This document shows, piece after piece, positions 13,084 to 56,028 of a stretch of DNA of 64,000 nt. The notes under the pieces are model-generated. The model made no database searches and had not been told where the DNA came from. It saw only the letters and a program-made list of their open reading frames with translations. The position numbers and the translations under genes are program-made. Within the stretch, counting starts at the first letter, position 1. Every line of letters starts with the position of its first letter. This DNA comes from Octopus vulgaris (taxonomy: Eukaryota): NCBI GenBank assembly GCA_951406725.2, contig OX597831.1:23064001-23128000 (forward strand), written 5' to 3'.

Positions 13084-13275
13084 TATCTGTAATATGATAT
13101 GTGACAATTATTTGGTTGCCATAAGAAAACTCTGAGTTTTGGATGTTGGGGTGGAAATCTGCTCCGGAATCTTGTCAGTTCTGATGAGAGCTGCTGGAGC
13201 AAATTTCTGCCCCAAAATCCACACTCAGAGTTTTATTATGGCAACCAAATAATTGTCACATATATATTACAGATA
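13084..13275. repeat. Long imperfect inverted repeat (~95 bp arms, 2-nt loop)
   Basis: TATCTGTAATAT..GTGACAATTATTTGGTTGCCATAA pairs with TTATGGCAACCAAATAATTGTCAC..ATATTACAGATA. The apex is at 13179-13180. Confidence 0.92.
13124..13182 (-). ncRNA. Decayed type I hammerhead ribozyme motif
   Basis: Minus strand: AGAA-CUGACAA-(stem II)-C-AAAA-CUC A GAG-UU-UUCU. Stem I is AGAA/UUCU. Both core lesions (CUGACGA->CUGACAA, CGAAA->CAAAA) are CpG-type changes. Confidence 0.5.
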
Positions 13276-13356
13276 AATTCCTCTATTTACATAATATCGA
13301 GGTCTCATTCATTCTTTTGTTGTCATACCTTTACTATTAATTAATATATATATATA

Positions 13357-13636
13357 TCACGTGATCACGTGACCGTCCAGACCATCAGATGTTGTTACAC
13401 ATCGCTGGTCACGTTCGAATGATGCCACCCCGCTGGCTAAGCAAGCAGGCCAACAGAAGAAAGAGTGGGAGAAAGAGTGGTGAAAGAGTAGAGCAGGGAT
13501 CACCAACCCTGCCGGAGCCTCGTGGAGCTTTTAGGTGTTTTCGCTCAATAAACACTCACAACGCCCGGTCAGGGAATCGAAACCACGATCCTGCGACCGC
13601 GAGTCCGCTGCCCTAACCACTAGGCCATTGTGCCTC

Positions 13637-13640
<4 letters not shown>
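13357..13640 (-). mobile_element. tRNA-derived SINE family C
   Basis: Minus-strand head GTGGAGGCACAATGGCCTAGTGGTTAGGGCAGCGGACTCGC...GGTTTCGATTCCC. Tail GGTCACGTGATCACGTGA running into (TA)n. Confidence 0.9.
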
Positions 13641-13693
<53 letters not shown>

Positions 13694-14020
13694 GTATGTA
13701 TATATATTTGTATGTGAGGACACATATCCTTGAAGGCAGGGTGTTGCAATCACAGTCGCAAAATCATGGTGTCATTTTCTACACCATGTGGTATGTTGTG
13801 TTCTTAAGCAAAACTCTTCATCTTACATTGAGCTGTGGTCACTTTTACACTTGACGTGTGGTGCCCAGTGCACTGTATCAGACAGCATCAATTTAGTGGA
13901 GGGAAGTGAGCTAATGTACAGCCCATACATTTGATCCTTGTAAACAAATCACTTGTGCAGGTCACTCAGCAAAAGCTGAATGTTCATACGTCATCTTCAA
14001 CAGGAGAGTTCAAAATATAT

Positions 14021-14210
14021 ACTCTCTTACTTGTTTCAGTCATTTGACTGTGGCCATGCTGGAGCACTGCATGTAGTCGAGCAAATCGACCCCAGGTCTA
14101 ATTCTTTGTAAGCATAGTACTTATTCTATCAGTCTGTTTAGCTGAACTGCTAAGTTACACACCAGCATCAGCTGTCAAGCAATGTTGGGGGGATAAACAC
14201 AGATACACAA

Positions 14211-14265
<55 letters not shown>

Positions 14266-14460
14266 CACACACGAACACAAATATATATATATATATGACG
14301 GGCTTCTTCCAGTTTCCATCTACCAAATCCACTCATAAGGCTTTTGTTGGACCAAGGCTATAGTAGAAGATACTTGCCCAAGGTGCCATACAGTGGGACT
14401 AAACCCGGAACCATGTGGTTTGTAAGCAAGCTTCTTACCACACAGCCACTCCTACGTCTA
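14021..14460 (-). mobile_element. SINE family A
   Basis: Full head, body and tail match. Confidence 0.88.
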
Positions 14461-14988
14461 TATATGTATATATGTATGATATCATCCTCATCATTGTTGT
14501 TTAATGTCCACTTTTCCATGCTTGAATGGTTTGGACAGAATTTATTGAGGCAGATTTTTTTGTGTTTTCACAAGATGTTGGAAATGAAGAACACTGTTTC
14601 CATGACAGCAACACTCATTTACAGCTATCATGTGATTTCAAGGCGAGGAGACCCTCACACACACATACACTCACATATATACACATACACACATGTATAT
14701 GAGAATACACATACACACATATACATATACACACACACATATATATATATATAATGGGCTTCTTTCAGTTTCTGTCAATCAAATCAACTCACAAGGCTTT
14801 GGCTAGCTTAAGGCTATAGTAGAAGACACTTATCCATTGCACCACACAGTGGGACTGAACCTAGAACTGCGTGGTTGAGATACAAACTTCTTATCACACA
14901 GCTACACTACTGACTCTCCTTCGTCCTCTCTCTGTCTTTATATGTGTGTGTGTATGTATGTATGTATATATATATATATATATACATA

Positions 14989-15019
<31 letters not shown>

Positions 15020-15298
15020 GTATATAGTTATATGTGTGTGTATTTAGTAGTTAATAAATTGTATGGTATACACCTGGCAGTTTACCTGTAACGCATGTTC
15101 ACTTTCTCAGTGTTCGTTAGGTATTTGATTAATGAGAAAAACAGAAGATGGAAGATGCAAGAAAGGTTATTGATCAAAACAGAGTTTTTCATCCATCCAG
15201 CATTGATCTCTCATAGGTGGGATTCTCAAAATCTCTGTCAGTGTAGAGGTGTCTCCTCAGGTGATTACAAGGTTCAGCGATCAATAAACTTTCTCATA

Positions 15299-15487
15299 GG
15301 CGCAGGGGTGGCTGTGTGGTAAGTTGCTTGCTTACCAGCCACATGGTTCCACATTCAGTCCTACTGCGTGGCACCTTGGGTAAGTGTCTTCTACTATAGC
15401 CTCAGGCTGACCAAAGCCTTGTGAGTGGAGTTGGTAGACGGGAACTGGAAAAAGCCCGTCGTATATATATATATATATATATGTATG

Positions 15488-15556
<69 letters not shown>

Positions 15557-15760
15557 CTGTGATTGTACCCCCAACATCGCTCAACAACCGATGCTGGTGT
15601 GTTTGCGTCTCCGTAACTTAGTGGTTTGGCAAAAGAGACTGATAGAATAAGTACTAGGCTTACAAAGAATAAATCCTGGGGGTCGAGTTGCTCGACTAAA
15701 GGCGATGCTTCCAGCATGGCCGCAGTCAAATGACTGAAACAAGTAAAACAGTAAAGAGTA
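15299..15760 (+). mobile_element. SINE family A, full length
   Basis: GGCGCAGGGGTGGCTGTGTGGTAAG...GACTGAAACAAGTAAAACAGTAAAGAGTA. Confidence 0.92.
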
Positions 15761-15787
15761 TATCTTCTATTTTCTGCCTCCCTTTAA

Positions 15788-15821
<34 letters not shown>

Positions 15822-16140
15822 GTACACACAGACATCAATTTATCAACAACAAAAGGGGAGGAGGTCTCTGTTGTGTTTATAAAGTTAAATAACATTCAAT
15901 AGATTAAAAATAGACATAATTAAATTATCACAGTGTGAATAATACTTGGTGATATCTAGGAATAGTTCTTAAGGTTAAATATACTTTCAATAAATTTAAA
16001 TAGGTCCGGTCAAAAATAAACAGTGTGTATATGATACCTAGGAAGCACACTTCTATATTATAAATTAAATTAGACAAATATATGAAAGAACCCAAACTAT
16101 CAAGTAATATATCAAAATAAATAAATATATTGATAGTAAC

Positions 16141-16355
16141 TCTTACTCTTTTTACTTGTTTCAGTCATTTGACTGTGGCCATGCTGGAGCACCGCCTTTA
16201 GTTGAACAAATCGACCCCAGGACTTATTCTTTGTAAGCCTAGTACTTATTCTATCTGTCTCTTTTGCTGAACCGCTAAGTTACGGGGACATAAGCACACC
16301 AGCATCAGTTGTCAAGCGATGTTGGGGGGACAAACACAGACACACAAACATACAG

Positions 16356-16388
<33 letters not shown>

Positions 16389-16503
16389 CATATATTCGAT
16401 GGCTTCTTTCAGTTTCCGTCTACTAAATCCACTCACAAGGCTTTGGTCGGCCCGAGGTTATAGTAGAAGACACTTACCCAAGCTGCCACGCATTGGTAAT
16501 GAA
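16141..16503 (-). mobile_element. SINE family A, head truncated at a duplication junction
   Basis: Tail and body intact. Similarity ends at the B box, where duplicated sequence starts. Confidence 0.88.
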
Positions 16504-16507
16504 CCTT

Positions 16508-16740
16508 TTAATTTTAAGTGCAACAAATTATCAGTATCTTTATAACATCAGACAAAATGTGTGTGTGTGTGTGTGTATGTGTTTTGGGGGTATTTTCCAA
16601 AGAACAATAATGCCACCAAGAGTTTCCATTCCAAGCTTATGTCACCTACAGGCAATGGAACAATACTGAACAAAAGGGGTATTAGAAGACATCTTTTTAG
16701 GGGCTTTGATGATTTTAGTTTTGTTTCATTGACACACACA
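16508..16740 (+). repeat. Composite local duplication of 18257-18307 and ~19462-19633
   Basis: Near-identical sequence. The ORF track shows the identical [16 protein letters not shown] peptide at 16561 and 19130. Confidence 0.9.
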
Positions 16741-18475
16741 CACACACACACACACACATAAACTTTACAAAAAATAAGTGAATAAACAAATAAGTAAAAG
16801 TAGCAACTGAGTACAGACCTAGATTGATTTTATCAAAAATAAGAGCATAGAAGAGTATATTATGGACATGGCAAATAGTACTAATGGTAGAGGCAGGCTT
16901 GTAAGCCTTTATAGTTAATAATTTAATAAAAACGGTGGAAAAAGGAAGTAAGGAATGTGTTATGGACATACTGAATAGGCTAGAAGGGAGTGGCTAGCTT
17001 CTAAACAGCCGATCAGCACTACCAAAAGGGTGAATAGTAACATGATGTAGTTCTTCTGAAATATGCCTATCCCTTGTCCAGTATGCGTAAAACCAATCTT
17101 TGGTGATGTTTAGAACAGAATCCAAGATGCACAGACTACAATTCAAGTGGAATAAACTCTCCATTCATTAGGATGTGAAAAATTTTAGTCAATCTGCCCT
17201 GAGGAGGTTTTTGCTTTTTTCAATTTCATAATGCACTTTAAATGTGTAAATATGGATGGAAGCAATTAACCGAAATGCTGTGTAGGCAATATGAATTGAC
17301 TATGATAGTAAATAAATTGATTATCCTATGTATGTATGTTCCATTTTCTTTATAGCATTAAAAATTTTTTCTCCTATATCGAAAATGGTGGAAACCTTTA
17401 TAGTGACAACTGGAATTTCAGAAGTCTAAGGTACTGACATTGAAGAAGAATCAGTGATAAACACTAATACATATGCACATGCAAAATTTCAAATTTTGTT
17501 AATTGATACAGAGCTAAACTGGTGTATGCTTGGATAAAGTTTATCCAAGGAAAGAACAACCTCTTTCCATACAGTCTTAGATATATATATATGTTTATGA
17601 ATTTGTGTTGCAAGATTCCTGATGTGAAATCATGTGTTGAATGAAATAAGTGGAGCAAGGGCACACGCAAAAATGAACAGTGTTACTGAAGTGGTCACAG
17701 ATGTGTGACGTAAGATTTTCGGACAATGGACATGAGTTAAAAAAAAAGAACAGTAATAAATGAGTGAAGAACAAATATACAGTGTGTGTGTTTATTTGGC
17801 AAAAAAAAATACAACCTTCCCAAAATACAACAAAACATATATATGTGTGTGTGTGTGTGTGTGTGTACACACACACGACAGACTTCTTTCAGTTTCTGTC
17901 TACTAAATCCACTCACAAGGCTTTAGTCTGCCTGAGGCTATAGCAGAAGACACTGCTCAAAGTGCCACACAGTGGGATAGAACCTGGAACTGTGTAGTTG
18001 GGAAGTAAGCTTCTTACCACACAGCCACACCTACACCTATATAAAAAAAAAGTTTGCTTGACCCTCATGTGACACTTACATTCTTGGTTCAAACCCTGCC
18101 AAAATCAATATTGCCTTTTATTCTTCTGGAAGTCACTAAAAGTGGAGTACCAGTCAGATACTGGGGTCGATATCGCATCACCAACTAACATCCATCCATC
18201 CATCCATCCATCCTTCCCTCCACAAATTTCAAGCCTTGTTCCTATATCAGAAACACTTAATTTTAAGTGCAACAAATTATCGGCATCTTTATAACATCAG
18301 ACAAAATTCTCTGCCAGGCTTTGTTCCAATGCTTTACCTTCCGAGTTCAAATCCTGCAAAGGTCAACTTTGTCTTTTATCCTTTCAGACTCAATGAAATA
18401 AAACGCCAGTCAAGAACTGGATTCTGATTTAATCGACTAACCTCAAAAAAGCCAAAAATCATTATAAATTATCAC

Positions 18476-18506
<31 letters not shown>

Positions 18507-19234
18507 GTTGTTGTTATTATTGTTGTTATTGTTATTGTTATTATTAACATTATTTATTTAGTTTCTTTCATCAATGTAATTAGCAAGTATTGACTTTGTC
18601 GTTATAATTTGATTCATCGACTGAATACTCTACAATTGCTGTTGATTTACTCTTTTAGAAATCATCAACAATTTATCATTGATTTAAGAAGCAGGTACGA
18701 GGAGGTGGTGGTGTTGGTGGTGGTCGGTGCAGCGGTGGTGATAGTTGTTGTGATGTTGTTGTTGTTTTTCTTCTTGGTGATGGTGGTGGCCATGGTGAGT
18801 GATCTTGTTGAAGTTGAGTGATAGTAGATGTGGCAGTGAAAGTGATAGCGGTGCTGGTAGCAGCAGCAGCAGTTGTAGTGGTGATAGTGGTGGTGGTGGT
18901 GGTGGTGGTGGTGGTGCCAATGAATATTTTGGACACAGTCGTGGTTTTGGTAGCGGCAGGATATAGTCATGGGTGTGGTGGCGGTGGTGGAAATGATGTT
19001 AGCAAAGGCATTGATGATGGTGAAGGTAAAAACAATGACAGTGACGATGACAATGATGATGATGATGATGAGGAGGAGGAGGAGGAGGATGAGGAGGAGG
19101 AGGAGGATAGTGGCTGCAGGTACTAATATGTGGTGGTGGTCTTAGTGGTGGCAGATGGCGTATCAGTGATAGCAGGAAGGAAAGTTATGCAAAATATATA
19201 TGTGCACATATGTGTATGTGTATATGTACATATG

Positions 19235-19301
<67 letters not shown>

Positions 19302-19424
19302 GCATGTATATGTCTGTATATGTGTATATATATGTGTATGCGTATATATATATATATATATGTATGTATATATACGTGTATGTATGTATGTATATATACA
19401 TATGTATGTATGTATATATCTATC

Positions 19425-19459
<35 letters not shown>

Positions 19460-19907
19460 ATGTGTGTGTATGTGTTTTGGGGGTATTTTCCAAAGAACAA
19501 TAATGCCACCAAGAGTTTCCATTCCAAGCTTATGTCACCTACAGGCAATGGAACAATACTGAACAAAAGGGGTATTAGAAGACATCTTTTTAGGGGCTTT
19601 GATGATTTTAGTTTTGTTTCATTGACACACACAAACACACACATACACACACACACACATAAATATATATATATATTGCTTTTATACACATCACTTATAT
19701 ATCAATAGTAATGTGATAGCCTCTTGCAGCCTTTCTAATTGATTCCATCTGATTTCTTTTCTATATTCCAACACCATTATCTACGAAACAGCAGGAACCG
19801 TGTTCAATTTATTAATTCCGAATAACATTACATTTGTCTGTTTGAGAGTTTTGTTTCTGGAATACAATGATCTCCTTAAGCATAAGTGTACATAAGTTTG
19901 CATGAAC

Positions 19908-19962
<55 letters not shown>

Positions 19963-19967
19963 CATAT

Positions 19968-20044
<77 letters not shown>

Positions 20045-20594
20045 AATATTATGTATATATATATGCATTATGTAGATGTGTATGGATGGATGAATAAGAT
20101 CGATGGTTGGATGGATATATGTTTATATTATGTATATATGTAATATGTATGTATATACTTACGTAATATTTGTGTATGTATGTGGATATATATAAATATA
20201 TATGTAATATATATGTGCTTGGTTTAATATGGATTGATGTTTGTAATGTGCATGTATATATTATGTATATATATATATATATATGTGTGTGTGTAATATA
20301 TAAGTATGTGTGTATAAATGTACATGCATTCTTTCTATATCTTGGTTTTATTTTTAAATAGAGAAAAAGCTGGCTTCTAGCCCAGAAACGATATTCTTTC
20401 ATTATAATTTAGTTACCATAACATCAGTTAAGTAGTCATGTATATATGTGTCTATATGCATATGTGAGTGCACCAGTGCATGCCATTGCACATGTGATAT
20501 ATCTGTATTGATGGCATATGTGCACATATACACACGTTTTTAAAGACTACATAGCATATATTTGTGTGTTTGTGTATTCTTGTGTGTGTATATG

Positions 20595-20885
20595 TAGGCA
20601 CGTGTTCAAGTATTTACAATGTTGGACTCATGATTTCTAAATTGTGGTTTCAATTCCTGGACTGTGGTGTGTTCTTGAGCGAAACACTTCATCTCCCATT
20701 GCCCCAGTCCACTCAGGTGTAAATAGTTAACCCTTCAACATACGACCCTTCTGATCAGGGAGAATGTCTGGCTGCTTATCTAGCCAAATGGGTTGCATCA
20801 TTCGATAGCTAAGATAATGCAAAGTGCATTGTGACCAGCGGTGTAAAACAGCATCTGATAGTCTGGTTGATCAGGTGAACATGTG
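20595..20885 (+). mobile_element. SINE with F-type head/body and C-type tail
   Basis: TTGAGCGAAACACTTCATCTC body followed by CATTGTGACCAGCGGTGTA...CATCTGATAGTCTGG. Confidence 0.65.
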
Positions 20886-21760
20886 ATATACATACATGCA
20901 CACATGCATACACACACATACACACACACACGCACACACACATACATACATACATACATACATACATACATACAGGTACATGGCTCAGTGGTTAGAGTGT
21001 TGGGCTCATGATCATGAGGTAGTGAGTTCAATTCCTGTACTGAGCTGCGTGTTGTGTTCTTGAGCAAGACATTTTATTTCACCTTACTTCACAGTTCACT
21101 CAGCTGTAGAAATGAGTTGCGATGTCACTGGTGCCAAGCTGTATCGGCCGTTGCTTTTCCCTTGTATAACATCGGTGGCATGGAAAAGAAAGAATGGTAT
21201 GCATGGGCAACTACTGGTCTTCCACAAACAACCTCAGAGGGGAAATTTTTAGGTGCAAGTTCATAGTCATTCATGACTGAAGGGGATCATTTCACTTTTA
21301 CCCTTTTTGCATATATACATACACACCCTCACACACACACACATATATATACAGGTTAAACTTTTTAACTGCTTTATATATTTTCTAAATTCCATTAATG
21401 ACTTAGATATGAACAATTCTATTTTACCATGTTCCTTCTGGTTTCGTGGAACCCAGTTTTTTTAAAATTGATTCTGAGGTAAATAATGATATAACCCAGT
21501 TTTCTAAAAATTATTACCTTACACAATTTAGTCCAGTTGGAATATCTGTGCATTTCTTATAAATTCAACATAGGTTTTTTTCCTTTATATTTTGCATTAT
21601 GTTAAAGTCTCCTGGAGAAAGGATTTCTTCCACATTGTTTCCTCTCCCCTAAATCCTTATATCTAGTCTGTTGTGTTGAGAGTTTATGGACTTTTTGGCA
21701 GGAACACTCTAACAGTATCCTTTCATAGAATGAGAGACTATAATCTTCACATCATTGTAA

Positions 21761-28487: not shown

Positions 28488-28790
28488 GTGATCACATGAC
28501 CGACCAGACCATCAGATGTAGTTACACATCGCTGGTCACAATGCGTTCGCATTGTTATAGCCTTCGAATGATGCCACCCCGCTGGCTAAGCGAGCAGGCC
28601 GACAGAAGAAAGAGCGGGAGAAAGAGTGGTGAAAGAGTACAGCAGGGATCACCACCCCCTGCCGGAGCCTCGTGGAGCTTTTCGGTGTTTTCGCTCAATA
28701 AACACTCACAACGCCCGGTCTGGGAATTGAAACCGCGGTCCTGCGACCGCGAGTCCGCAGCCCTAACCACTAGGCCATTGCGCCTCCACA
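28485..28790 (-). mobile_element. SINE family C
   Basis: Matches 13357-13640. Confidence 0.9.
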
Positions 28791-28799
28791 TATATATAT

Positions 28800-29100
28800 G
28801 GAGTCAAAATGGTCCAGTGGTTAGGGCAGCAGACTCACAGCCATAGGATCGTGGTTTCAATTCCCAGACTAGGTGTTGTGAGTGTTTATTGAGTGAAAAC
28901 ACCTAAAGATCCATGAGGCTCGAGCAGGGGGTGGTGGCAATCCCTGCTGTACTCTTTCACTGTAACTTTCTCTCATTCTTTCTTCTGTTACCCTGCTTGC
29001 TTAGCCAGCAGGGTGGTGTCATTTGAAGGCTAAAACAATGCAAAGCACATCGTGACCAGCGATGTGTAGCAACATCTGACAGCTTGGTCGAGAAAAAAAA
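28800..29100 (+). mobile_element. SINE family C (more diverged, short poly(A) tail), head-to-head with the previous copy
   Basis: GGAGTCAAAATGGTCCAGTGGTTAGGGCAGC...CTTGGTCGAGAAAAAAAA. Confidence 0.85.
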
Positions 29101-29378: not shown

Positions 29379-29958
29379 CAAGGGTGTTACAAGTAGAAGC
29401 CCCATGCTAAAAATAGCAGTTAGAAGATGAACTACAATCACAAGTTTTCACTGAAACACATTAACTGAAATTGATGGAATGAGCAGAATTTCTAAGTCCC
29501 ACTACCAAAAGCGAGAAGAATTGTAAATTGAAAAGCCAGACATAATCATATTGTCGTGATTTTGAACTTTTTGAAAATGTCATTTAGTTATCCTCAGCGA
29601 GTCTCACTGACCCACGGTAACAGAAACTGCCATTTCAACAATGCGTGCAATGACCGTTTTTAATGCTGCTGCATTATGCATCACATACAGGAAGATTGTT
29701 GAGATGGGCAGTTTCTATGACCCTGGGTCAGAAAGACACACTGAGGATAACTAAATGACATTTTCAAAAAGTTTGAAATCATGACAATACGAGTTTGTCT
29801 GTCTTTTCAATTTACGATTCTTTTTGTTATTGGTACAGGGGCTTAGACTTTATGCTTATTCCCCTGACTTCAATTAATGTGTATCAGCGAAAATTTGTGG
29901 TTGTAGTCGTCTTCTGACTGCTATTTTTAGCGTGCTGGTACTACTTGTAGCACCCTTG
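29379..29958. repeat. 580-bp rod-like imperfect inverted repeat (~264-bp arms, 52-nt loop)
   Basis: Arm 29379-29642 (CAAGGGTGTTACAAGTAG...) pairs with 29695-29958 (...CTACTTGTAGCACCCTTG). It includes a perfect 33-bp core AACTTTTTGAAAATGTCATTTAGTTATCCTCAG. Confidence 0.95.
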
Positions 29959-30070
29959 ATTATTAATTAATAAATGTTTACCTTTATGTTATTACCTTTA
30001 TGTTTTTTTATGCATACTATGCCACCTGATATTATTGTAAACAATAACATCATATATATATATATATATA

Positions 30071-32227: not shown

Positions 32228-32536
32228 GTATGTATGTACATATATGTAAGTATGTTCGTATGTATATATGTTTCTATGTATGTATTTATAATAATTTTAT
32301 GAGCTACATAGACACGAGAATGCTGAATATACTTTTGTATTACCTTTGACTGTTATATAATAAGGTAAAGAAAATTACACACCTCTATCAACATTTTTCT
32401 CAGTCATTCTTCTGGACAACTGTACACAAGAGTAGATTGCACAAAAATGATTGATAAAAACTGAATGGGTTAAACTGCTTAACTGCTTGTTTGATTTTTG
32501 CATCCATCAGGAGGTCTGCCTTAGGACACTCTCGGA

Positions 32537-32586
<50 letters not shown>

Positions 32587-32878
32587 AGCTGCAGGCTAAT
32601 ATAATTTGATTTTGCTTTATTATTAGAATGTACTTGGAAATGTCATGGACTTTCTCTGCAAGACATGAGCTGCAACACAATAACATAATTGTAAACATTG
32701 GTAATTTAGAAAGTATTGCCTGTAAGGCAGTGGTATAGTGGTTAGGTTGGGCTCACAATCATAATGTAATAGTTTTGATTTTTGAATCAGATGACATGTG
32801 TGTGTGTGTGAATATTGTCCTTCTCCTTCCTTGTCCTGCATGGGTAACCAAGTATCTCTTCCATCTTAAGACAACTGT

Positions 32879-33391
32879 CTTTGTCCAACTAACATAGTCT
32901 AACCGCTATCCTTTGTCCAACTAACATAGTCTAACTGATATCCTTTGCCCAACTAACATAGTCTAACAACTAACATTTGTCCAACTAACATAGTCTAACA
33001 ACTAACATTTGTCCAACTAATGTAGTCTAACAACTAACATTTGTCCAACTAACATAGTCTAACTGCTATCCTTTGTTGAACTAACATAGTCTAACCACTA
33101 TCCTTTGTTGAACTAACATAGTCTAACCACTATCCTTTGTCCAACTAACATGGTCTAACTGCTATCCTTTGTCCAACTAACACAGTCTAACTGCTATCCT
33201 TTGTCCATCTAACATAGTCTAACCACTATCCTTTGTCCAACTAACATAGTCTAACCACTATCCTTTGTCCAACTAACATAGTCTAACCACTATCCTTTGT
33301 CCAACTAACATAGTCTAACCACTATCCTTTGTCCAACTAACATAGTCTAACCACTATCCTTTGTCCAACTAACATGGTCTAACTGCTATCC
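32879..33391. repeat. 31-32-bp minisatellite, ~16 units
   Basis: Unit CTTTGTCCAACTAACATAGTCTAACCACTATC. Confidence 0.95.
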
Positions 33392-34466
33392 TGGCAAGCA
33401 GCCACTTCTTTGGTTTCAGTTACTCCCTCTCTCAACTAAGTTGTTCATCTTGCAAGTTCCTTGGTGACACTGCTGGTGCCGGTGCCATGTGAAAAACATC
33501 CAATACATTCAGTAGAGTGGTCAGCATTAAGACGAGCAACCATCGATAGAAACCACGTCAAAACAGATAAATGGAACCTGGTGTAGCTCTCTGGCTTGCC
33601 AGCTCCTATCGAGCCAGTGAACCCATGGTAGCATAGAAAACGAGCATTAAATGATGATGATGATGATGATGATGATGATAATGCTGATGATATATAACTT
33701 TGGAGTCACGCAAATGTAATAAATCTGGCAGTTTAAAAACCTTAAGCAAGTCGCTTTTTGTACTTAGAAGATAAAAAGACCCACAAAGCAACAAATACAT
33801 ATCCAACAACATCAGTTAATCGAAATGTTTCCAAAATACAAAATTACAGTTAGAAATGTATCTTGCCTTTAAAGGAAACCGTTGGAAGTAACTGACATGT
33901 TTCAATCTTGTCTCATCAATGACACTTTTTCACTTCAGCTGAGTTGATTTAGAAGTGAGCAATAATATGAAAAATACAAGGAAATCAAAGATGCCTATTA
34001 TGGGACTTAACATCTTACTGAGTTTCACTTGGTTCTTCATCTTTCCAGAGTTAATAGAATAAAGTAATAGAGATAGTTTAATCAGATATACCCTCTTCCA
34101 GAGTCGAGGCCATGTTCATATGTTAGAAATCAATAATATAAGTATGTGATAAACATTCCCGTCTAAGAGATAATCCTTCGGAAAATAGTTAGATTTTCTC
34201 CTTCTTCATGTCAACAGTCGCTGAATTCCGAAGATAAGTGGTTCCATGCAAAATGAAGGAAAAACAAAATTAAATGTAAATAATGTCTATGTGTGTGAGT
34301 ATATATATATTTGTCCATCTGTTTGTCCATATATATATATATGTATATAATATATATATATATATCTTCTCATGTACCTGTGTATTTATCTGTGTTTGTA
34401 TGAGTATATATATTTGTCTATCTGTTTGTCTGTTTGTCCATATATATATATGTATATATATGTATA

Positions 34467-42880: not shown

Positions 42881-42884
42881 TTTA

Positions 42885-43048
42885 TATTTAATAATAGTTT
42901 GACTTAACTCCACATTACTAAACGTTTGGTATGCTTGTAGGAGGCATCCACCTCGTTATATGTTTCTTGACAACTGAGGAGGTGGTGCCAAAACCTGCAT
43001 GTCCACCAAATTTTAAGTGCTGTGGAAATGTGTGACGATTATCAAATA
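42885..43048. repeat. Degenerate inverted repeat (~70-bp arms)
   Basis: TCCACA..TTTGGT..TGTAGG..GGCATCCACCTC pairs with GAGGTGGTGCC..CCTGCA..ACCAAA..TGTGGA. Confidence 0.6.
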
Positions 43049-46183: not shown

Positions 46184-46244
<61 letters not shown>

Positions 46245-46270
46245 TTAACATAAATACAACTCTTAAGTTC

Positions 46271-46550
46271 AAAATAGCCCGGCTATGGAAAATGAAGAAG
46301 GTGAAGATAGTGTCAATTATTGTTGGATCCTTGGGAACAGTTTCAGAGGGCATCAAGAGGAATATAAAGGAAACTGGAATATTGGGCCCAGCAGAAATGT
46401 TACAAAAGGCTTGCCACCTTGGCACAGCCAGAATAATCTGGAAAATATTAGATAGCTGAAAAGAATGGATAGCTTGGCTGCAGGTAGTAAGCCTGCTGCA
46501 CATGCAAGACTCCAGGAGTTCCAATAAAACTTGTGTTAAAAAGAAATAAA
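46271..46550 (+). mobile_element. R4/Dong-clade retrotransposon 3' end (RLE endonuclease C-terminus + 3' UTR)
   Basis: KIARLWKMKKVKIVSIIVGSLG...MLQKACHLGTARIIWKILDS*. Embedded between (AAT)n tracts. Confidence 0.8.
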
Positions 46551-47039
46551 ATGATAATGATAATAATGATAAGGGGGCTATAGTTATATATATGGAAAGA
46601 TAAAATTCAGTTTTTGAATTCAGAATTATAAACATGTTCATAATATTGATATTAAGAAAACTAGCCTTGTGTCAAAATTTGAAACAATATTAATCTTCAG
46701 AAAGTAAGTGAGGGAAATTATTTAATCACCATAGAGTAAAACTATCATATTCATCCACCAAAAATTTGACTGAAATTTGACCTTTTCCAAAGGTAAAATT
46801 AGACAGTATCTCAACTCAAAATTAGCAAAATGAGTAAAATCAATAATGTGAATTATGGAATTAATTCTAATAATAATTTTCCTGAACTAGATTTTGATAC
46901 TTTAGGTAAAAATAATTCTGACTCTGAAATTGATACCTTTAAGGTAACACCTAGTAATAATATTGATTATAATACTGCTAATGATATCCTGCTTTAACAC
47001 CTACTTGTGAGAAGAGAAGGAAAAATAATTCCTGTAAAC

Positions 47040-47497
47040 ATGAGTACCTCATACAAGAGAATAAATGTCTTTGTAGTTTCAAAAGCAAATTTATCTGTAC
47101 TTTAGAAAAAGTGTATTTAAGGAAGAATATATTGCATCGATTTAAGGTCATTACAGGGGATCAGATGTATTGTTACATAATTTTACTATCACAATTTGGA
47201 AAGCTTAGATTACATAACCATTCTTCTTCATTTAATTTTAGAAGAAAATATAATTCTATAAATCTAAGTAAATGTATTTGGGATTTAAAAGACAGGAATA
47301 ATAGCTTTAACATAAAATGGTCCATTATTAGTTATGCCCCATCATTCAATACTGGTAATTTTAAATGTGGTCTTTGCCTTGAGGAAATGTATTATGTAAT
47401 TACTTCTAAATTAGAATTATTGAATGGTACAAATAATTTTACATTGAAATATTCTCATAAGTATAGAAAAACATTTAAATATTCCAATAATAAATAA
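47040..47497 (+). pseudogene. Penelope-like element GIY-YIG endonuclease remnant
   Basis: KLRLHNHSSSF...NSINLSKCIWDLK...IKWSII...CGLCLEE...LLN, the typical Neptune-type PLE C-terminus. The GIY/YIG motifs themselves are degenerate. Confidence 0.8.
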
Positions 47498-47980: not shown

Positions 47981-48094
47981 AACCTGAAGAGTGTCTATAT
48001 TTTTTAAATGAATTGATTTTAAATTGAATCAATTTTAATAGTATCGATTTTATTATTATCGATTTAAAGATATAGTCATGAAACATGCGTAGTC
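47981..48094 (+). ncRNA. Type I hammerhead ribozyme motif (PLE pLTR-type)
   Basis: CUGAAGA (47984-47990), long stem II GUGUCUAUAUUUUUUAAAU/AUUUAAAGAUAUAGUCAU, GAAA (48080-48083), C-AUGC-G stem III, GUA site at 48089-48091, weak stem I AC/GU. Confidence 0.7.
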
Positions 48095-48283
48095 AATTTA
48101 ATGTTTATTTAATTTAGTGATTTTTTAAAATAATATTTATTATAGTATATTTAAATTCTTCTATATGATATAGATAAAGTCTTTCACTATTGAATTACTT
48201 AATAGAGGTTATTTCTCTTAATTATATACATATTTATAGATATATATATCTCCAAATTTAGGGAATGGAGCAGGTAAAAATCC

Positions 48284-48368
48284 AGGCTACATATGTTTCC
48301 TAGCTAGCAGAATCTCGGTAGAAGTAATAACCCAAACTAGTGGTACTCCACTAGCTACTCATCAGGCT
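48284..48368 (-). ncRNA. Type I hammerhead ribozyme motif
   Basis: Minus strand GC-CUGAUGA-GUAGCUAGUGGAG...UUCUGCUAGCUAG-GAAAC-AUAU-GUA-GCCU. Palindromic ACAUAUGU stem III. Confidence 0.72.
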
Positions 48369-48577
48369 AAAGACACCTTCGTCAAATGAAGGTTACATTG
48401 TCATAAAGGAAGCCTAAGATAACTCAGAGGAGATTTGATCATAAATGAATGGAAAGCATTTTTGATCAAATATCCTGCAAGTTAACTTGGGATCCCTTGA
48501 TGACAATATAAACTTCATTTGAATGAGGTATCTTAGGCCTGATGAATAGCTTGCAGAGTACTGCTCGTTTGGGTAAT
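48327..48577. repeat. Gap-free imperfect inverted repeat (~120-bp arms)
   Basis: ACCCAAAC..TCATCAGGC..TCAAATGAAG..ATTGTCAT..ATTTGATCA pairs with TGATCAAAT..ATGACAAT..CTTCATTTGA..GCCTGATGA..GTTTGGGT. Confidence 0.9.
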
Positions 48578-48764
48578 ATATATGTATATGTATGTATGAT
48601 AAGCATCATTCTCTTTCTGTCTACCAAATCCACTCACAGGGGTTTGGTTGGACTGAGGTTATAGAAGACACTTTCCCAATGTGCCATGCAGTGGGACTGA
48701 ACCCGGAACCATGTAGTTGAGAAGCAAGCTTCTTACCACACAGGAATGCCTGCTTAAAATTGTT

Positions 48765-49065
48765 GTTTGTTCCTTCTTGAGCCATGCCTGGCTCATAGGG
48801 CCGGTTTCCCAGTTTCCTTGGCGTATAGGTTCCCCACCTGGACAGGACGCCGGTCCATTGCAGGTGAGCTGCAAGATACAGGAGGAAAGAGTGAGAGAAA
48901 TTTGTAGCGAAAGAGTCAGCAGAAGTTCGCCATTACCTTCTGCCGGAGCTGCGTGGAGCTTAGGTGTTTCGCTCATAAACACACACATCGCTCGGTCTGA
49001 GATTCGAACCCACAATCCCTCAACCACGAGTCCACCGCTCTAACCCCTAGGCCATGTTCCTCCAC
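48765..49065 (-). mobile_element. SINE with C-type head/body and F-type tail
   Basis: The head matches 43117-43419. The tail GGCTCATAGGGCC...CTGGACAGGACGCCGGTCCAT matches 1285-1350. Confidence 0.75.
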
Positions 49066-51019
49066 CCTGCTTAAAATAGTAGCTAAATATTCATGCCACA
49101 CCATATCATATTCATAAAGGAAAGACACATTATATAATTTAGCCTTAGATACACCATTCCCAGAAAAATAAGATAGGGTGGTCACGGGCGTTTGTATATC
49201 TTTTAGATCATAACTTGATTTGAGAGTTTATGACAGCAACATGAATGACATCAATAACAACATGACCAACTCAACTGATTGATGAAATGTAGGCTAAGAT
49301 ACGAAATGTCTAGAAATGGTAAAAAAAAATGTGATGGTCATGGCATGAATGTCTTTTGTCACAAGTTTGTTTGATTAGAGCTTAACTGAGGCTACTGCTG
49401 ACCACCAGCACCAGCACCACCAGCACCACTAGTACCACCACCACCACCACCACAGCCACCACCAAGAAATGGAAATGACCAAGAATTTCTTGACTCCGTT
49501 TTTGTTAATTTAAGCTTCAAACAAACGCAATACATAGTTTGACATTAAAGCATCATTTACAGAATTCCTTTTGCTTCTAAGAGTTTTCAGATTTTGGTGT
49601 TGGATTTATTCTCCCTTTCGTTTCTAGAAGACATGCACACACATGCAAATGCATGCACACCACATACATTCAGACGCACATGTTATTCATCCTTGCTAAG
49701 TGGATTAAAGCTTCTCTTTTTGTGTTTAATGAAACAAGCTTTGGAAACCCTGCGACTTTATTCTCATCATGCATGCTTGACTGTTAGGTGTGGTGGAACT
49801 CTGTTTGGTATAGGACGCGAGGAATGAAATGGAAAAAGGAAAATGGGAAGGAAGACAATGGTGGTGGTGGTGGTGGTGGTGGTGGTGCGGGTGGGTGATG
49901 GTGATGGTGATGGTGATGATGATGTGGAGGAGGTGGAGAAGGAGGAAGGAGTTGCAAAGATGAAGAAAATGAAGGGAGATGATGATGATGATGATATGGA
50001 AGGGAGAAGGAGGAGGAGGAGGAGGAAATGGAGAAGAAATGTGGGAAAATGAGAAGAAATGAAGAACTGGAGAAGAAAGGAGGAAATGAAAGAGAATAAG
50101 AAGAAAAAGAAATAGAAGAAGAAGAGAAAAAGAAGTAGAAAACAAAAAGAAATAAAGAACAGTATGGAGAAATAAAGATGACATGAGAAAGAAATGAAAA
50201 ACAAGAACCATGAAAACAAGTGAGAAAGAAGAAAAGAAAATAAGAAAAAAATGATGAAAGTGAAGAAGAAAAGGAAGATGAAAGTGCAAAGGAGAAAGAA
50301 GACAAAAGTGAAGAGGATAAAAAAAAAAAGTGATGTAGATGCAATTGAAGCCTGGCAAGATGGTAACGGGGGTTGCGGTGTGCAAGGTGCTGGCTGGAGT
50401 TGGTGGAATGAAGAAATGGCAGCAGGTCGAAAGGTGTGAGCAAGGTTGACAGTATTGATCCCAATGAAAGGTCACTTGATCGTTCCATGAATTGTAACGA
50501 GTTGTTTGTGAGAAATTGCTGTTGCCTTAATTGAGAGAATGAGCAATAAAAACCACGCTAATAACGGCAATGAACAAGCAGCAAAGATTTAATGATTGCC
50601 AGTGTGCATCTTGTGCATGTGTGCATGCGTATCTGTCTTTGGTAAGGTGCTCCGCTTCTCAGCTACGTGATTCTGGGTTCAGTGGCACTGCATGGCACCT
50701 TGGGCAAGTACCTTTTGCTATACCACTGGGTGGGCCATCGCCTCTAGCTAGCCATATGACACACGAACTTGTGTCCATTATAAACTTTGAACAGGGGAGG
50801 TCAGCTGCTTCCCCTTGCTGGTCAGGCATTTGCCCTTTATTAATGTAGAGTAGCCAAACCCAGCTTGCATTGCTACTGACCATCTGTTTGAAGGATTATT
50901 TACCTAATTTCAGTAGAATACATCCACTGGTTTTCAAAATTAGATGGTCTCTTGGAGATAATCAATGGCAGCTTTTGTCCTCTATTCATGGACTGCCATA
51001 TTAGCTTGGCGATGACTGT

Positions 51020-51232
51020 TAGGCTGGTCCAAAAGTAGGTTTACAGTTATTCAACTATCTCTTTCGCATTCATATGTTAACAGTTTAGATCTTAATCATA
51101 ACAAAAAATATGAAACCATTATTCTGTGCTAATTTAGTTAATTGTAAGATAGAAATTTAAATGAAATAAAATATTTTAAAGAAATTTAAAGTACCTTCAT
51201 GATAACTGTAAGCCTACTTTTGGGCCAACTTA
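51020..51232. mobile_element. Tc1/mariner/pogo-type MITE
   Basis: ~31-bp TIRs TAGGCTGGTCCAAAAGTAGGTTTACAGTTAT / ATAACTGTAAGCCTACTTTTGGGCCAACTTA. Confidence 0.8.
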
Positions 51233-51402
51233 CGTATATATATATATATATACATATAAGTGTGTCTGTGTGTGTGTGAAGGTGCATGTGATAATGATTA
51301 GGATGTTTGGCTCGTAATTACAGGGTTGCGGGTTTCACTTTGGACTCGGTGGTACATTGTATTCTTGAACAAGACACTTCATTTTACATTGTTTTGCTCC
51401 AT

Positions 51403-51826
51403 AGGCGCAGGAGTGGCTGTGTGGTAAGTAGCTTGCTAACCAACCACATGGTTCCGGGTTCAGTCCCACTGCGTGGCATCTTGAGCAAGTGTCTTCTGCT
51501 ATAGCCTCGGGCCGACCAAAGCCTTGTGAGCGGATTTGGTAGACGGAAACTGAAAGAAGCCTGTCGTATATATGTATATATATATATGTATGTGTGTGTT
51601 TATGTTTGTGTGTCTGTGTTTGTCCCTCTAGCATTGCTTGACAACCGATGCTGGTGTATTTACATCCCGCGTAACTTAGCAGTTCGGCAAAAAGAGACCG
51701 ATAGAATAAGCACTGGGCTTACAAAGAATAAGTCCCGGGGTCGATTTGCTTGACTAAAGGTGGTGCTCAAGCATGGCCACAGTCAAATGACTGAAACAAG
51801 TAAAAGAGTATAGAGAGTAAAGAGTA
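51403..51826 (+). mobile_element. SINE family A, full length
   Basis: Consensus-like head to tail. Confidence 0.92.
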
Positions 51827-51989
51827 TTCCACTGAAAGCGGATCTCAGATGAGTGTTGGTTCAGCCCTCTTTCACTTCAACTGTCACAACCCCAGATGTC
51901 CTGCTGTGACAAGGGTACATGATGCAACAGTGTCTTTATGTCAGCTTGCAGTTCCATAGGCACCTAAAACAATTAGCAAAGATATGATA

Positions 51990-52152
51990 GTAGGTGTGGC
52001 TGTGCGTGGTAAGAAGTTTGCTTCTGAACCACATAGTCCCTGGTTCAGTTCCCACCAGCATGGCACTTTGGGCAAGTGCCTTCTACTACATCCCAGGTCT
52101 GATGAGAGTCTTGTGAGTGCATTTGGTAGACAGAAACAGGAGAGAGACTTGT

Positions 52153-52205
<53 letters not shown>

Positions 52206-52555
52206 ATATATATAAAGTTCAGTCATGGCTGGGTGATAAGAAGCTCACTTCCCAACCACATGGTTTTGGGTTCAGTCCCACTGCATGACACCTTGCATAA
52301 GTGTCTTCTACTATTGCCTCTGGCAAACCAAAGCCTTGTGAGTGGATTTGGTAGATGGAAACTGAAAGAAGCCCGTGGTATAAATATATACTCTCTTTTA
52401 CGTGTTTCAGTCATTTGACTGCAGCCATGCTGGAGCACCGCTTTTAGGATGAAAGGCAAAGTCAACCTCGGCAGAATTTGAACTCAGAACGCGGTGGACG
52501 AAATACCCCTAAGCAGTTTGCCCGGCGTTCTAAAGATTCTGCCAGCTTGCTGCCT
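51990..52555. mobile_element. Cluster of SINE A heads (+), an A tail (-) and a B fragment (-)
   Basis: Motif matches to families A and B. Confidence 0.75.
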
Positions 52556-53569
52556 TTTTTATAATATACATATATATTAATATATATATAATATATATAT
52601 ATATTTTATAATATACATATTATTCATAACTATGTGTGTGTCTTTGTGTTTGTGTTTGTCAACCATCACTGCCATAACTTAGCAGTTTGGCTAAAGATAT
52701 CAATAGAATAAGCACTCAGCTTACAAAGAATAAGACCTGAATAAATTCCGTTGACTAAACAAAACCCTTTCTGTGTGAGTGTTTGTGTGTTTGTGTTTCA
52801 GAGTCTTCTTGCCATCATGTGGCTTGATAGCTGTACATGATTGTCACCCTCATACAAGCATCCCTCCAGGATGGTCACAATCTAAAGGCTGAAACAAGTA
52901 AAATAATAAGAGTAAGAACAGACACACATGCACACACACACACACACACACACACAACAAATACAGTATATAACTAATGCAATGTTCTTCTTTATATTGT
53001 TTTGCGATATGTCGCTGTAACTTGGGAAATTGACCTATAGAAACTGATAAGGTGAGTGCTTGATTGAGATAAGACTGAAAGAAGTTTCAAACATTCATAT
53101 AATAGCTGAAAACATTTGAAACACTGCCCCAGCCTGGCCACTGTCCAATGACTGAAACAAGTAGCAAAAGATAAAAGGAATGACTGTGTGTGTTTAGATA
53201 TATGAGTAAATGCATGTGTATATGTATGTGGATATGAATATATTTATACATACATCCATCCATCCATCCATCCATACATACATACATACATACATACATA
53301 CATACATACATCCATACACACATACACACATACATACATACATACATATATATATATATTCACAAATATATATGTATAAATGTATATAGATATATGTATA
53401 TATCTATACATGCATAAAGGCTTATATATATATGTATGTATATCATATATTCATAAGTATATATGTAGAAATGAATATATATATATATATACACATATGT
53501 ATATGTCTATACATGCATAAATACATAAAGGCATACAGACATACACACATGCATAAATATGTATGTATG

Positions 53570-53606
<37 letters not shown>

Positions 53607-54012
53607 ATCTATATATGTATGTATATCATATAAATATTAGATCTTTGATTAGCGCCTTACATCAAATGTTGAGATGAAGACAAATAAATTATTACCGCTA
53701 TCATTACCGTGCTGCTATAATGAATTATTTCATTACCTCCTATGTGAAGAATTTCCTTTGGTGAGCGGCAACACCTCTCATTCACACGGACACATGGACA
53801 CACACACATACTTGCGCACATATGCAATAATGCACACACTGTTTGAACTTCGGAAACACATAAATTGCCATAATTCCATCTTTTAATGTTGGATGTGGAA
53901 AGAACTTTGCTTTGGAAACTCATGGTTCCACTTTCAGTCCTACTCCGTGGCATGCTGGACCAGTGTCTCCCACTAAATGCCATTGTATATATATGTATTT
54001 ATATATGTATGT

Positions 54013-54660
54013 AAAGGTGAGATCCAAGGATCCAGGTATTGGAAGCTAATGAGCTTCAAGTAGTCCATAAAAGGAATGAAAGCCAGCTTTCAGAAACTTT
54101 AGTGGTTTATTGATGTAGAAGATTGTAAATATTTCCCATATCGAAGTTTGATAAGCAGGAAAATGTTATTTCATAGTTCCCTGTTAGCAACAGAAATTTC
54201 AGTGTATGAGAATAATACTCCCAATGCCAGCGCTGCCTCGACTGGCTTCCGTGTCGGTGGCACGTAAAAAGCACCATCCGAATTGTGGCCGAAGCCAGTG
54301 CCGCCTCGACTGGCTTCCGTGCCGGTGGCACGTAAAATACACCAATCCGACCGTGGCCGATGCCAGCCTTGCCTGGCACCAGTGCAGGTGGCACGTAAAA
54401 AGCACCCACTACACTCACGGAGTGGTTGGCGTTAGGTAGGGCATCCAGCTGTAGAAACATTGCCAGATAAGACCGGAGCCTGGTGCAGCCTTCTGGCTTC
54501 CCAGATCCCCGGTCGAACCGTCCAACCCATGTTAGCATGGAGAACGGACGTTAAACGATGATGATGATGATTCTGGATTAGGGAATGGAGCAGGTAAGAT
54601 CCAGACTACATATATTTCCGAGCTAGCAGAAAACTGGAAGTAGTAAATATCCAACCAAGG
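54013..54660 (-). mobile_element. Hammerhead-family element, split by an RTE tail (~54222-54571) and truncated by a LINE
   Basis: Colinear with 55685-56028 (AAAGGT(G/A)AGATCCAAGGATC...GGGAATGGAGCAGGTAA...CTACATAT). Confidence 0.8.
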
Positions 54661-54662
54661 AA

Positions 54663-55143
54663 TTTTTTTTTTTCTGTAGTTTCAGCTCAGGGCTGTGGCC
54701 ATGCTGATGCACCACCGTTTTGTGCTACACTGTTATTACGACGAACCTCCTCCAACATGTGGCACTTGGTGAAGAAGGCAGTTTGATGTAGCTACCCTCA
54801 TTTGCACCTCTTGCCGTGAAGTAGGTTCATCTGGGACTCTCGACAGGAAGAGGTTCCAGTCTTGATATTAAAATGCCTACATCTACTTTGTGCAGGTTTC
54901 TCAGGCTCTTTAGGGGAATATTAAAAAGGTTTGGGCCCCTGAAACCCAGGCTGTTGCAGTAACAGTCCTGAAACACGATGGCGTTGCTGGGATCTTTGGC
55001 ACGATGCAGTGTTGTCCCATTCTGGCATTGGTGTAGCTTTCATTGCCAAAACTTGGCACAATTCATTCCAGGATCTTCTAGATGTATATTACTGCATACC
55101 TCTCCTGCCTTCTCTCCAGGGAGTAGAGTCTTAGCTGTCTCAG
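54663..55143 (-). mobile_element. CR1/L2-group LINE 3' end with poly(A) tail
   Basis: Minus-strand peptides LRLYSLERRQERYAVIYI*KILE, SLGFRGPNLFNI, RVPDEP. Confidence 0.8.
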
Positions 55144-55164
55144 TTATATATATAAATATATATA

Positions 55165-55242
<78 letters not shown>

Positions 55243-55245
55243 TTT

Positions 55246-55644
55246 TTTTACAGTCAATTGACTGTGGCCATGCTGAAGCACTACCTTTTGTCAAGCAAAT
55301 CGACTCCAAGACTTATTCTTTGTAAGCCTAGTACTTATTCTATCAGTATTTCTTGCCAAACTGCTAAGTGACGGGGACGTAAACACACCAGCATCGGTTG
55401 TCAAGCAATATTTGGGGGACAAACACAGACACACAAACATATACATACATACACACACACATATATATATATATATAAATATATATATATACACGACAGT
55501 TTCCATCTACCAAATCCACTTACAAGAGTTTGGTCAGCCCGAGGCTATAGTAGAAGACACTTGCCCAAGGTGCCCCGCAATGGGACTGAACCCAGAACCA
55601 TGTGGTTTGTAAGTAAGCTACTTACTACACAGCCACTCCTGTGC

Positions 55645-55645
<1 letters not shown>
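55246..55645 (-). mobile_element. SINE family A
   Basis: Full-length match. Confidence 0.88.
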
Positions 55646-55684
<39 letters not shown>

Positions 55685-55685
<1 letters not shown>

Positions 55686-56028
55686 AAGGTAAGATCCAAG
55701 GATCAAGGTGTAGGAAGCTAGTTAACTTTGAGCAATCCACAGAAGGTATAAAAATAAAACTTTGTGGAACAATAGTGGTTTACTGACGTAGAAGGTTGTA
55801 AATTTTGCCATATCAAAGTTTGATTAGCAGAAAAATGTTATTTTATAGTTCATGCTTAGGAACTGGCATTGCTGTGTATGCAAAAAACAATCTAGTAACA
55901 ATCCAAACTTTGGGAATGGAGCAGGTAAAATGTAGGCTACATATGTTTCGTAGATTACAGAACCTTGGAAGTTGTTATTACTTAATGAGGGGTACTCTAC
56001 TAGCTATTCATCAGGCCAAAGATATCTT
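55685..56028 (-). mobile_element. Hammerhead-family non-coding element flanked by (TA)n
   Basis: Homologous to 48251-48378 and 54013-54660. Confidence 0.8.
55935..56017 (-). ncRNA. Type I hammerhead ribozyme motif with intact core
   Basis: Minus strand GGC-CUGAUGA-AUAGCUAGUAGAG...UUCUGUAAUCUAC-GAAAC-AUAU-GUA-GCC. Stem I is GGC/GCC. Confidence 0.72.

Follow-up and report, generated by a model that had tools for sequence, protein, structure and literature searches.

A 64,000-nucleotide stretch of the Octopus vulgaris genome (assembly GCA_951406725.2, contig OX597831.1, positions 23,064,001 to 23,128,000 of the forward strand; hereafter the window) contains four inverted repeats, hairpins A (13084-13275), B (29379-29958), C (42885-43048) and D (48327-48577), which an earlier note had taken for rod-forming, self-cleaving retroelements with hammerhead ribozymes in both polarities. 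All four inverted repeats are present. With a probability of about 0.9, each consists of two 5'-truncated 3' ends of one repeat family, lying head to head beside (TA)n-type DNA, likely placed in a single insertion event by the machinery of Hydra-clade Penelope-like elements (PLEs) and decayed since. They are probably the commonplace remains of transposons, as opposed to viroid-like RNAs.

This reading is built on observed features: the head-to-head geometry, variable apices and truncation points, discrete long and short ends, solo copies, a tail on one side, PLE coding sequence connected with families A, D and G, and arms about 99% identical in young relatives. It keeps the earlier view that the sequences are linked to PLEs, carry type I hammerhead scaffolds and lie at (TA)n sites. 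Decayed tail-to-tail pseudo-long terminal repeats (pLTRs) of PLEs, the simpler alternative offered at that time, also proves right but for the orientation of the arms, which meet head to head (5' to 5', with the 3' ends outward).

Family A: two arms probably copied from one template

The 2.8-Gb assembly (227 contigs) was searched for relatives of each hairpin; only the 40 best candidates per search were scored, and the genomic counts below are therefore biased samples. With hairpin A as query there were 3433 first-look candidates, and 40 of the 40 scored had two arms. The 30 copies fetched had common outer ends at TA, TG or CA repeats and differing apices. A second search used the tail alone, so as not to select for hairpins, and among its 30 loci 9 were solo, 19 had a clear inverted arm and 2 were ambiguous (L099, L122). 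In these loci the shortest inverted arms measured about 20 bp and the longest exceeded 260 bp; two of the arms lay 600-900 bp upstream.

After removal of three duplicate loci, 43 of the 57 distinct copies had both arms and could be compared by projection on a natural solo copy. The majority letters of left and right arms differed in none of 104 columns, and the 5' ends of the arms varied from 55 to 132 nt and from 43 to more than 260 nt. Divergence was 0.110 between the arms of one copy and 0.133-0.136 between copies. Minor alleles were common to both arms of a copy at a rate of 0.154, as against 0.053 (maximum 0.091) in 1000 shuffled pairings, and this held when CpG sites were left out (0.134 against 0.031). 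Because of these arm statistics, the two arms are best explained as products of one template per insertion, with the hairpin not inherited as a unit. Agreement of left-arm and right-arm consensus sequences combined with a variable apex had been set beforehand as the outcome that would overturn the rod-like interpretation, and for family A this is what was found.

Longer copies of family A extend 5' through an untranslated region (UTR) of about 1 kb into a GIY-YIG domain, and an A arm is joined to that domain in L102. The parent has a single frame for a reverse transcriptase (RT) plus, at its C-terminus, a GIY-YIG endonuclease (EN), flanked by pLTRs; its copies are disrupted by stops and frameshifts. 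One of them (L172) is complete, though broken, in the order pLTR-RT-EN-pLTR, and in another (L173) a head-to-head pair extends over 3.8 kb, the apex falling within the RT. Hairpin A is the short end of a continuum that reaches up to copies bearing open reading frames (ORFs).

Families D, G and C

Two further segments of the window, E and F (at 54013 and 55685), had been described as related hammerhead copies. Both belong to family D, but E is without the CUGANGA core motif. An inverted arm accompanies the family D sequence in 6 of 28 loci, the window included, and of 25 further loci 6 have, upstream, same-orientation EN remnants that are decayed and similar to Hydra-type EN. Copies of the family stop at one of two discrete 3' ends, which are separated by about 210 nt; 13 head-to-head pairs were found among 50 loci (two of which overlap), 9 of them pairing a long with a short end and none pairing two long ends.

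G is a separate, abundant family (1146 genome candidates). Of its 14 other loci, 4 are preceded upstream by a decayed Hydra-like EN segment and 5 have inverted partners. For hairpin C, DNA search gave two relatives, both partial, and in one of them a hammerhead with a Hydra-type stem III can be recognised; a hammerhead pattern search for further relatives gave no matches. A, B, C, D, G and a further element at 17050 are mutually unrelated, with no blastn match among them at E<=0.01.

The clade of the parent elements

The family A parent carries RWK (as RMRWKTFF) and DKT instead of DKG (as FPDKTKNLY), both in L172, together with a CxCX5C linker that reads CSCRDKNLC in 7 of 8 copies printed from 20 loci scanned. 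Its EN has no CCHH motif, lacks a pair of cysteines between its core strands, and reads KCGLC and GPCPY in L102. Since these motifs match the definition of the Hydra clade in section 11 of PMC8557442 (RWK, DKT, CxCX5C, no CCHH, CxxC and CxH motifs), the parent is, as far as motifs can tell, a Hydra-clade PLE. An insertion preference for (TA)n and a hammerhead in the pLTR were both seen in these families. Neptune-type PLEs had been proposed earlier as the mobilisers. The linker (CX2-5CxxC) and EN motif (CCHH) given for the Neptune clade (PMC8557442) are absent from the EN remnant in the window (46985-47497), from its relatives and from the A parent, whose motifs are Hydra-type, so that this part of the proposal fails.

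The EN remnant has 150 scored matches in the genome. The window does contain it and the hammerhead at 47981-48094, as noted earlier, but they come from different families: the 3' UTR of the remnant matches none of 14 other G-family loci, which rules it out as parent of that hammerhead. Protein searches returned many unnamed relatives of about 700 aa and one misnamed Argonauta protein, and a PDB sequence search gave nothing useful.

A relative elsewhere in the genome (L144; G000:C5:7065500-7073500) has an open 899-aa RT and EN frame (locus 1706-4402) with a low-complexity insert, between direct pLTRs of 331 bp that are 99.1% identical and each carry a hammerhead with a 55-nt stem II. By its sequence, L144 is a young, intact Hydra-type PLE. 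Among its relatives (L145-L151), inverted arms are 99.3% identical over 1573 bp in L146 and 98.6% identical in L148.

Hammerhead motifs

Type I hammerheads were sought with a descriptor comprising CUGANGA, a stem II of at least 2 bp, GAAA, UH and a stem I of at least 3 bp. None of the eight hairpin arms matches it; the sole matches in the window are at 17199 and, doubtfully, at 3603, and the hammerhead at 17195-17288 is the only one there that convincingly passes the full descriptor. Mirroring of CUGANGA on both strands, claimed for all four hairpins, holds for B and D, but in A and C the motif is on the plus strand only, in A at the apex. By eye, the core letters are kept in the B plus arm, where stem I is broken, and in the D minus arm, whose core extends beyond the hairpin as far as 48285 and has a G.G at the foot of stem II and a stem I of 2 bp. 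GAAA is absent from both arms of A and from C, the minus arm of B reads AAAA, the D plus arm ends before GAAA, and F is nearly complete. CUGANGA occurs 32 times in the window, which is background (shuffle mean 26.1, maximum 42).

At the level of families the predicted hammerheads are convincing. Natural copies pass the descriptor in A (L040), B (L081), D (L018), the 17050 family and the L144 family, and G and a C relative have a type I layout by eye; the seven stem I sequences, one per family, are all different and all pair. The full core pattern is retained in 9 of 30 right arms and 14 of 30 left arms of A, in 12 of 27 B copies and in 7 of 28 D copies. The predicted family D ribozyme may be weakened by G.G in place of G-C at the base of stem II, found in 6 of 7 core-bearing copies, with A.C in copy F. 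Rfam gave no matches in the window at the gathering score, and by E-value no hammerhead appeared among the 150 of 339 matches listed, where microRNA models of TA and TG repeats dominate; this is likely because stem II in these families is 27 to about 90 nt long. By eye, a short CTCCATT-like stretch seems to follow the predicted cut site, at a distance of 25-70 nt, in the D, L144 and 17050 families, which are otherwise unrelated.

The motif TACCTTT, proposed as a shared terminus, is the true 3' end of the family of D, E and F only. Its 16 occurrences in the window fall within the range of 100 shuffles (mean 11.8, maximum 24), and it is carried by 2 of 30 A copies, 25 of which read TACCATT or TACTATT, and by 3 of 27 B copies. 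A unique-looking stretch between TA runs at 32290-32540, with TACCTTT at 32341 and a minus-strand CUGAUGG, is possibly another decayed pLTR end.

Rod-shaped RNAs as an explanation

Viroids and other rod-shaped circular RNAs can carry ribozymes in both polarities, and the hairpins resemble them in their rod-like fold and in a hammerhead motif on each strand. The idea that the hairpins are non-autonomous viroid-like retroelements, self-cleaving in both polarities and copied as a unit, draws on several results. The predicted rods of A, C and D are far stronger than those of shuffled sequence (z=-19.3, -6.5 and -15.1, respectively, with 0 of 200 shuffles as good in each case; B is predicted to fold at -341 kcal/mol). 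When the hairpin is the query, A copies are numerous, two-armed and similar in size; 4 of 30 such copies keep both cores; and RNA sequencing reads exist for A at the level of the family.

Against it, family A has no arm-specific differences and no fixed apex, solo and kilobase-long versions exist, and head-to-tail multimers of a hairpin were seen in none of the loci viewed. The hairpin is optional in D, with an inverted arm in the minority of loci given above, as it is in A with its solo copies, and both families are the ends of ORF-bearing elements. Unlike in viroids, the second motif here is the exact inverted copy of the first, the rod does not serve as the unit of copying, and circles were not observed. 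Each strand has a single sense hammerhead, so that no circle would be excised. Whichever strand is transcribed, the antisense arm comes ahead of the ribozyme and would bury the core, and the prediction is that the hairpin neither cleaves itself nor forms a circle. In the four A copies with both cores intact, equilibrium prediction puts the cost of opening a core at about 28-33 kcal/mol and the probability of its being unpaired at 0-0.15. No arm of the window hairpins passes the hammerhead descriptor, as described above.

Three unstranded cDNA runs, identified by species label only, were compared with region 12850-13630 at 85% likeness, about 6% of each run being read. Read depth on the A tail was about 180-270, against about 5000-7700 on a neighbouring SINE-like (short interspersed nuclear element) repeat, and only 59 of 10764, 46 of 9204 and 48 of 7049 reads were at least 99% identical. 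As regards A-to-I editing, A>G and T>C mismatches were equalled by C>T and G>A, nearly all reads coming from other copies. No RNA data set was listed as containing the A hairpin, which speaks neither for nor against its transcription. No circular back-joints or end pile-ups were found over A in these runs, a weak test given unstranded reads, uncertain species and the fraction read. The repeat at 12850-13065 had high contig depth in run X1 and no reads in the three raw RNA runs, which may be a filtering effect. For A and D the rod-like interpretation is largely refuted, and for the hairpins as a whole we regard it as very improbable.

A proposed insertion mechanism and its alternatives

The tail is one-sided. 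None of the 43 left arms of family A carries it (the right arm having been selected for it), and all five long A pairs in which both ends were seen combine an end with the tail and an end without. Tails are about 55, 90 and 210 nt in A, B and D. These observations suggest a scheme in which the two strands of a TA repeat are each cut by the GIY-YIG endonuclease and each cut strand primes reverse transcription on the element RNA, one at a distal site that includes the tail and one at a proximal site that leaves it out. Both cDNAs would terminate early and their 5'-truncated ends would be linked, the junction often falling in a short self-complementary stretch or microhomology such as the palindromic stem III of the hammerhead. 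A hammerhead would then stand on both strands solely through the double copying of the pLTR in which it lies. Work in vitro with a Poseidon-clade protein (PMC11167929) found both strands cut and extended, the tail bounded by two RT start sites, and hammerhead cleavage dispensable.

A single cDNA that folds back on itself during second-strand synthesis, or a palindrome rearranged later, could give similar hairpins without a second priming event. In several short A copies the turning point is self-complementary, for example the stem III palindrome (L112, L114, L119), and the arms of young copies are nearly identical, both of which suit fold-back. A simple fold-back would let the target set the arm ends, not yield two discrete ends defined by the element; moreover, either arm can be the long or tailed one, and hundreds of bases of unpaired element sequence part the arms in some copies (L107, L121). 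On balance fold-back seems unlikely, though it deserves more weight than the other alternatives considered here.

TA flanks and inverted termini could also suggest miniature inverted-repeat transposable elements with long terminal inverted repeats, or chance insertions of neighbours into one TA run, and independent head-to-head neighbours do occur in the window, as in a SINE-like repeat at 28490-29090. The one-sided tail, the 5' truncation and the continuity with RT and EN sequence count against such origins, and so do two further results: arms of one A copy share minor alleles three times more often than shuffled pairs, and the apex of A copies has no TA run. We consider either origin highly improbable.

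Several points weigh against two-ended insertion by Hydra-clade machinery as the general account. A Poseidon-clade protein studied in vitro is the source of the two-primer mechanism, which would have to be carried over to Hydra elements; the tails exceed the 30-40 nt reported for PLEs. The clade call was made by motifs, the L144 frame reads RWL for RWK and has no clear CxCX5C linker, and Pfam gives no RT or GIY-YIG match for that 899-aa frame or for the EN remnant. The arm statistics are confined to family A, and there the two arms of a copy are nearer to each other than to the arms of other copies by a modest margin only; part of that signal could stem from later gene conversion or from loss of the apex of a palindrome. 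The counts carry the bias of the 40-candidate sampling. For B and C, we infer mobilisation by Hydra-type PLEs from (TA)n flanks, tail asymmetry and hammerhead type; no adjoining ORF or ORF-bearing parent was present for B in 30 loci, and none was found for C.

Family B as a retrozyme-like unit

Family B (270 candidates) occurs in solo, tandem and inverted forms. In L081 it wraps head to tail with a period of 432 bp and one type I hammerhead per unit, and its longest stop-free stretch of 71 aa marks it as non-coding. A strict wrap was present in 9 of 30 junction-selected loci. Inverted partners were present in 18 of 30 loci, of which 7 show both discrete ends, all of them long plus short by eye. 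The hairpin in the window is not repeated in any other B locus viewed.

Retrozymes have been defined and tied to the pLTRs of PLEs (PMC7229834, Cervera and de la Pena, 2020; bioRxiv 10.64898/2026.07.22.740005, Li, Clavereau and Pollet, 2026). A head-to-tail non-coding unit of 150-450 bp with a type I hammerhead in each unit was taken as the mark of a retrozyme, and B has it; metazoan retrozymes without long terminal repeats (non-LTR retrozymes), as described there, resemble its 432-bp unit. Compared with them, the genomic copies of B are mostly partial tandems and monomers at about 80% identity, often with inverted ends, and B is known here from genomic DNA. Families A, D and G differ from retrozymes in not being tandem short units. 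B is likely a non-autonomous, retrozyme-like tandem unit of about 430 bp inserted by Hydra-clade machinery. The earlier description of non-autonomous elements thus suits family B but not A and D, which are truncated ends of ORF-bearing elements.

A further, tentative proposal, which we hold at somewhat less than even odds, joins two statements: that B is a cephalopod non-LTR retrozyme, a self-cleaving circular RNA of about 430 nt that bears the Hydra-clade signature of two ends and one tail, and that stem II inserts of 27-90 nt form a hammerhead variant missed by Rfam and present on a young, intact Hydra-type element. If the first is true, it would directly show the machinery and priming mechanism that move animal retrozymes, and if the second is true, L144 would be a young element suited to in vitro work.

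Relation to described elements

The structure is already published for PLEs. An inverted 5'-truncated copy with a one-sided tail is the standard anatomy of their insertions (PMC8557442), inverted pLTRs have been noted (PMC8969392), and opposite-strand hammerhead pairs lie 100-700 bp apart (PMC4209133). The whole geometry seen here agrees with this general insertion unit (PMC8557442 fig. 2 legend; PMC8969392; PMC4209133; PMC11167929), from which the octopus hairpins differ in an extreme truncation that makes 160-600 bp hairpins resemble separate elements. Hammerheads on both strands are likewise on record for a Hydra-clade element, Penelope-13_HM, with its inverted 5' copy (PMC8557442).

Likeness to described Hydra-clade PLEs covers the C-terminal GIY-YIG domain without CCHH, the RWK, DKT, CxCX5C and CxxC/CxH motifs, (TA)n targets, as recorded for Hydra-1_Obim (PMC8557442; Craig, Yushenova, Rodriguez and Arkhipova, 2021), a type I pLTR hammerhead with a near-palindromic stem III of 7-9 nt, and the inverted 5'-truncated copy that puts hammerheads on both strands. 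Stem III of the A copies, ACUC-G-GAGU, is as in Penelope-16_HM and Hydra-2_aMil, and that of the C relative, ACUU-U-AAGU, is as in Penelope-13_HM. The differences are in length: stem II spans 27-90 nt here, as against roughly 10-27 nt in 26 Hydra-clade entries of File S2, 3' UTRs extend up to about 1 kb, and tails are 55-210 nt here as against 30-40 nt. The octopus families were matched to no named PLE entries, and a literature search, with most subscription papers and Repbase outside its reach, gave no description of them.

Features of the window

Table 1. Positions of PLE-derived and related features in the window
Feature	Positions	Strand	Remarks
Family A left arm	13084..13180	-	Inverted, 5'-truncated pLTR copy; tail absent; hammerhead core broken
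Family A right arm	13181..13275	+	pLTR 3' end of putative Hydra-type PLE; CUGAUGA at 13181; GAAA lost
Family A predicted cut site	after 13232	+	In right arm
Family A one-sided tail	13276..13337	+	About 55-60 nt, then (TA)n
17050 element	17050..17481	+	Further repeat copy, new to this analysis; predicted hammerhead 17195-17288, 66-nt stem II
Family B left arm	29379..29675	-	Inverted truncated copy to short 3' end; CUGAGGA at 29597; GAAA mutated; apex boundary approximate
Family B right arm and tail	29694..30050	+	Tail about 90 nt; within ~430-bp non-coding tandem unit
Family B right-arm motif	29741	+	CUGAGGA; core letters present; stem I broken
Hairpin C	42885..43048	.	Old, decayed head-to-head pair
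GIY-YIG endonuclease remnant	46985..47497	+	Hydra-type PLE by motifs (CxC linker, no internal CCHH, CxxC...E...N...H)
G	47982..48235	+	Solo truncated 3' end; PLE family other than that of the endonuclease remnant
G predicted type I hammerhead	47981-48094	+	~90-nt stem II
Family D main arm	48255..48452	-	To short 3' end; CUGAUGA at 48365; 58-nt stem II
Family D inverted arm	48456..48577	+	Cut off before GAAA
E	54013..54663	-	Solo family D copy; full ~210-nt tail; no CUGANGA; split by high-copy repeat at 54225-54573
F	55685..56029	-	Solo family D copy; full tail; near-complete hammerhead; CUGAUGA at 56014

The 17050 family has 292 candidates in the genome, several with inverted partners nearby. 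The repeat that splits E has 34 blast matches in the window, and a general repeat search over the window was dominated by microsatellites. At 28490-29090 the two SINE-like copies stand head to head round a short (AT)n and form a 750-bp hairpin with no hammerhead, while 32815-33486 is a tandem repeat of about 21 units of 32 bp. A short coding remnant at 46240-46460 (+) may resemble the C-terminus of a long interspersed nuclear element (LINE) with a restriction-like endonuclease. Beside five D copies (L005, L010, L015, L021 and L023) lie other, unrelated self-inverted stretches of 130-500 bp, which suggests that self-inverted hairpins are dense in this genome.

Significance

As found, the hairpins matter little in themselves, being a clean instance of a published PLE insertion structure, and they serve as a caution that mirrored ribozyme motifs in genomic hairpins are no evidence of viroid-like agents. 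More speculatively, thousands of such hairpins could be a source of double-stranded RNA in transcripts. The rule of one end with a tail and one without, followed in three families, supports extending two-start-site priming from one lizard element in vitro to the Hydra clade in vivo, and the tandem non-coding unit of family B bears the same one-tail signature. With its intact frame and 99% identical pLTRs, L144 offers a substrate for tests of (TA)n-targeted insertion.

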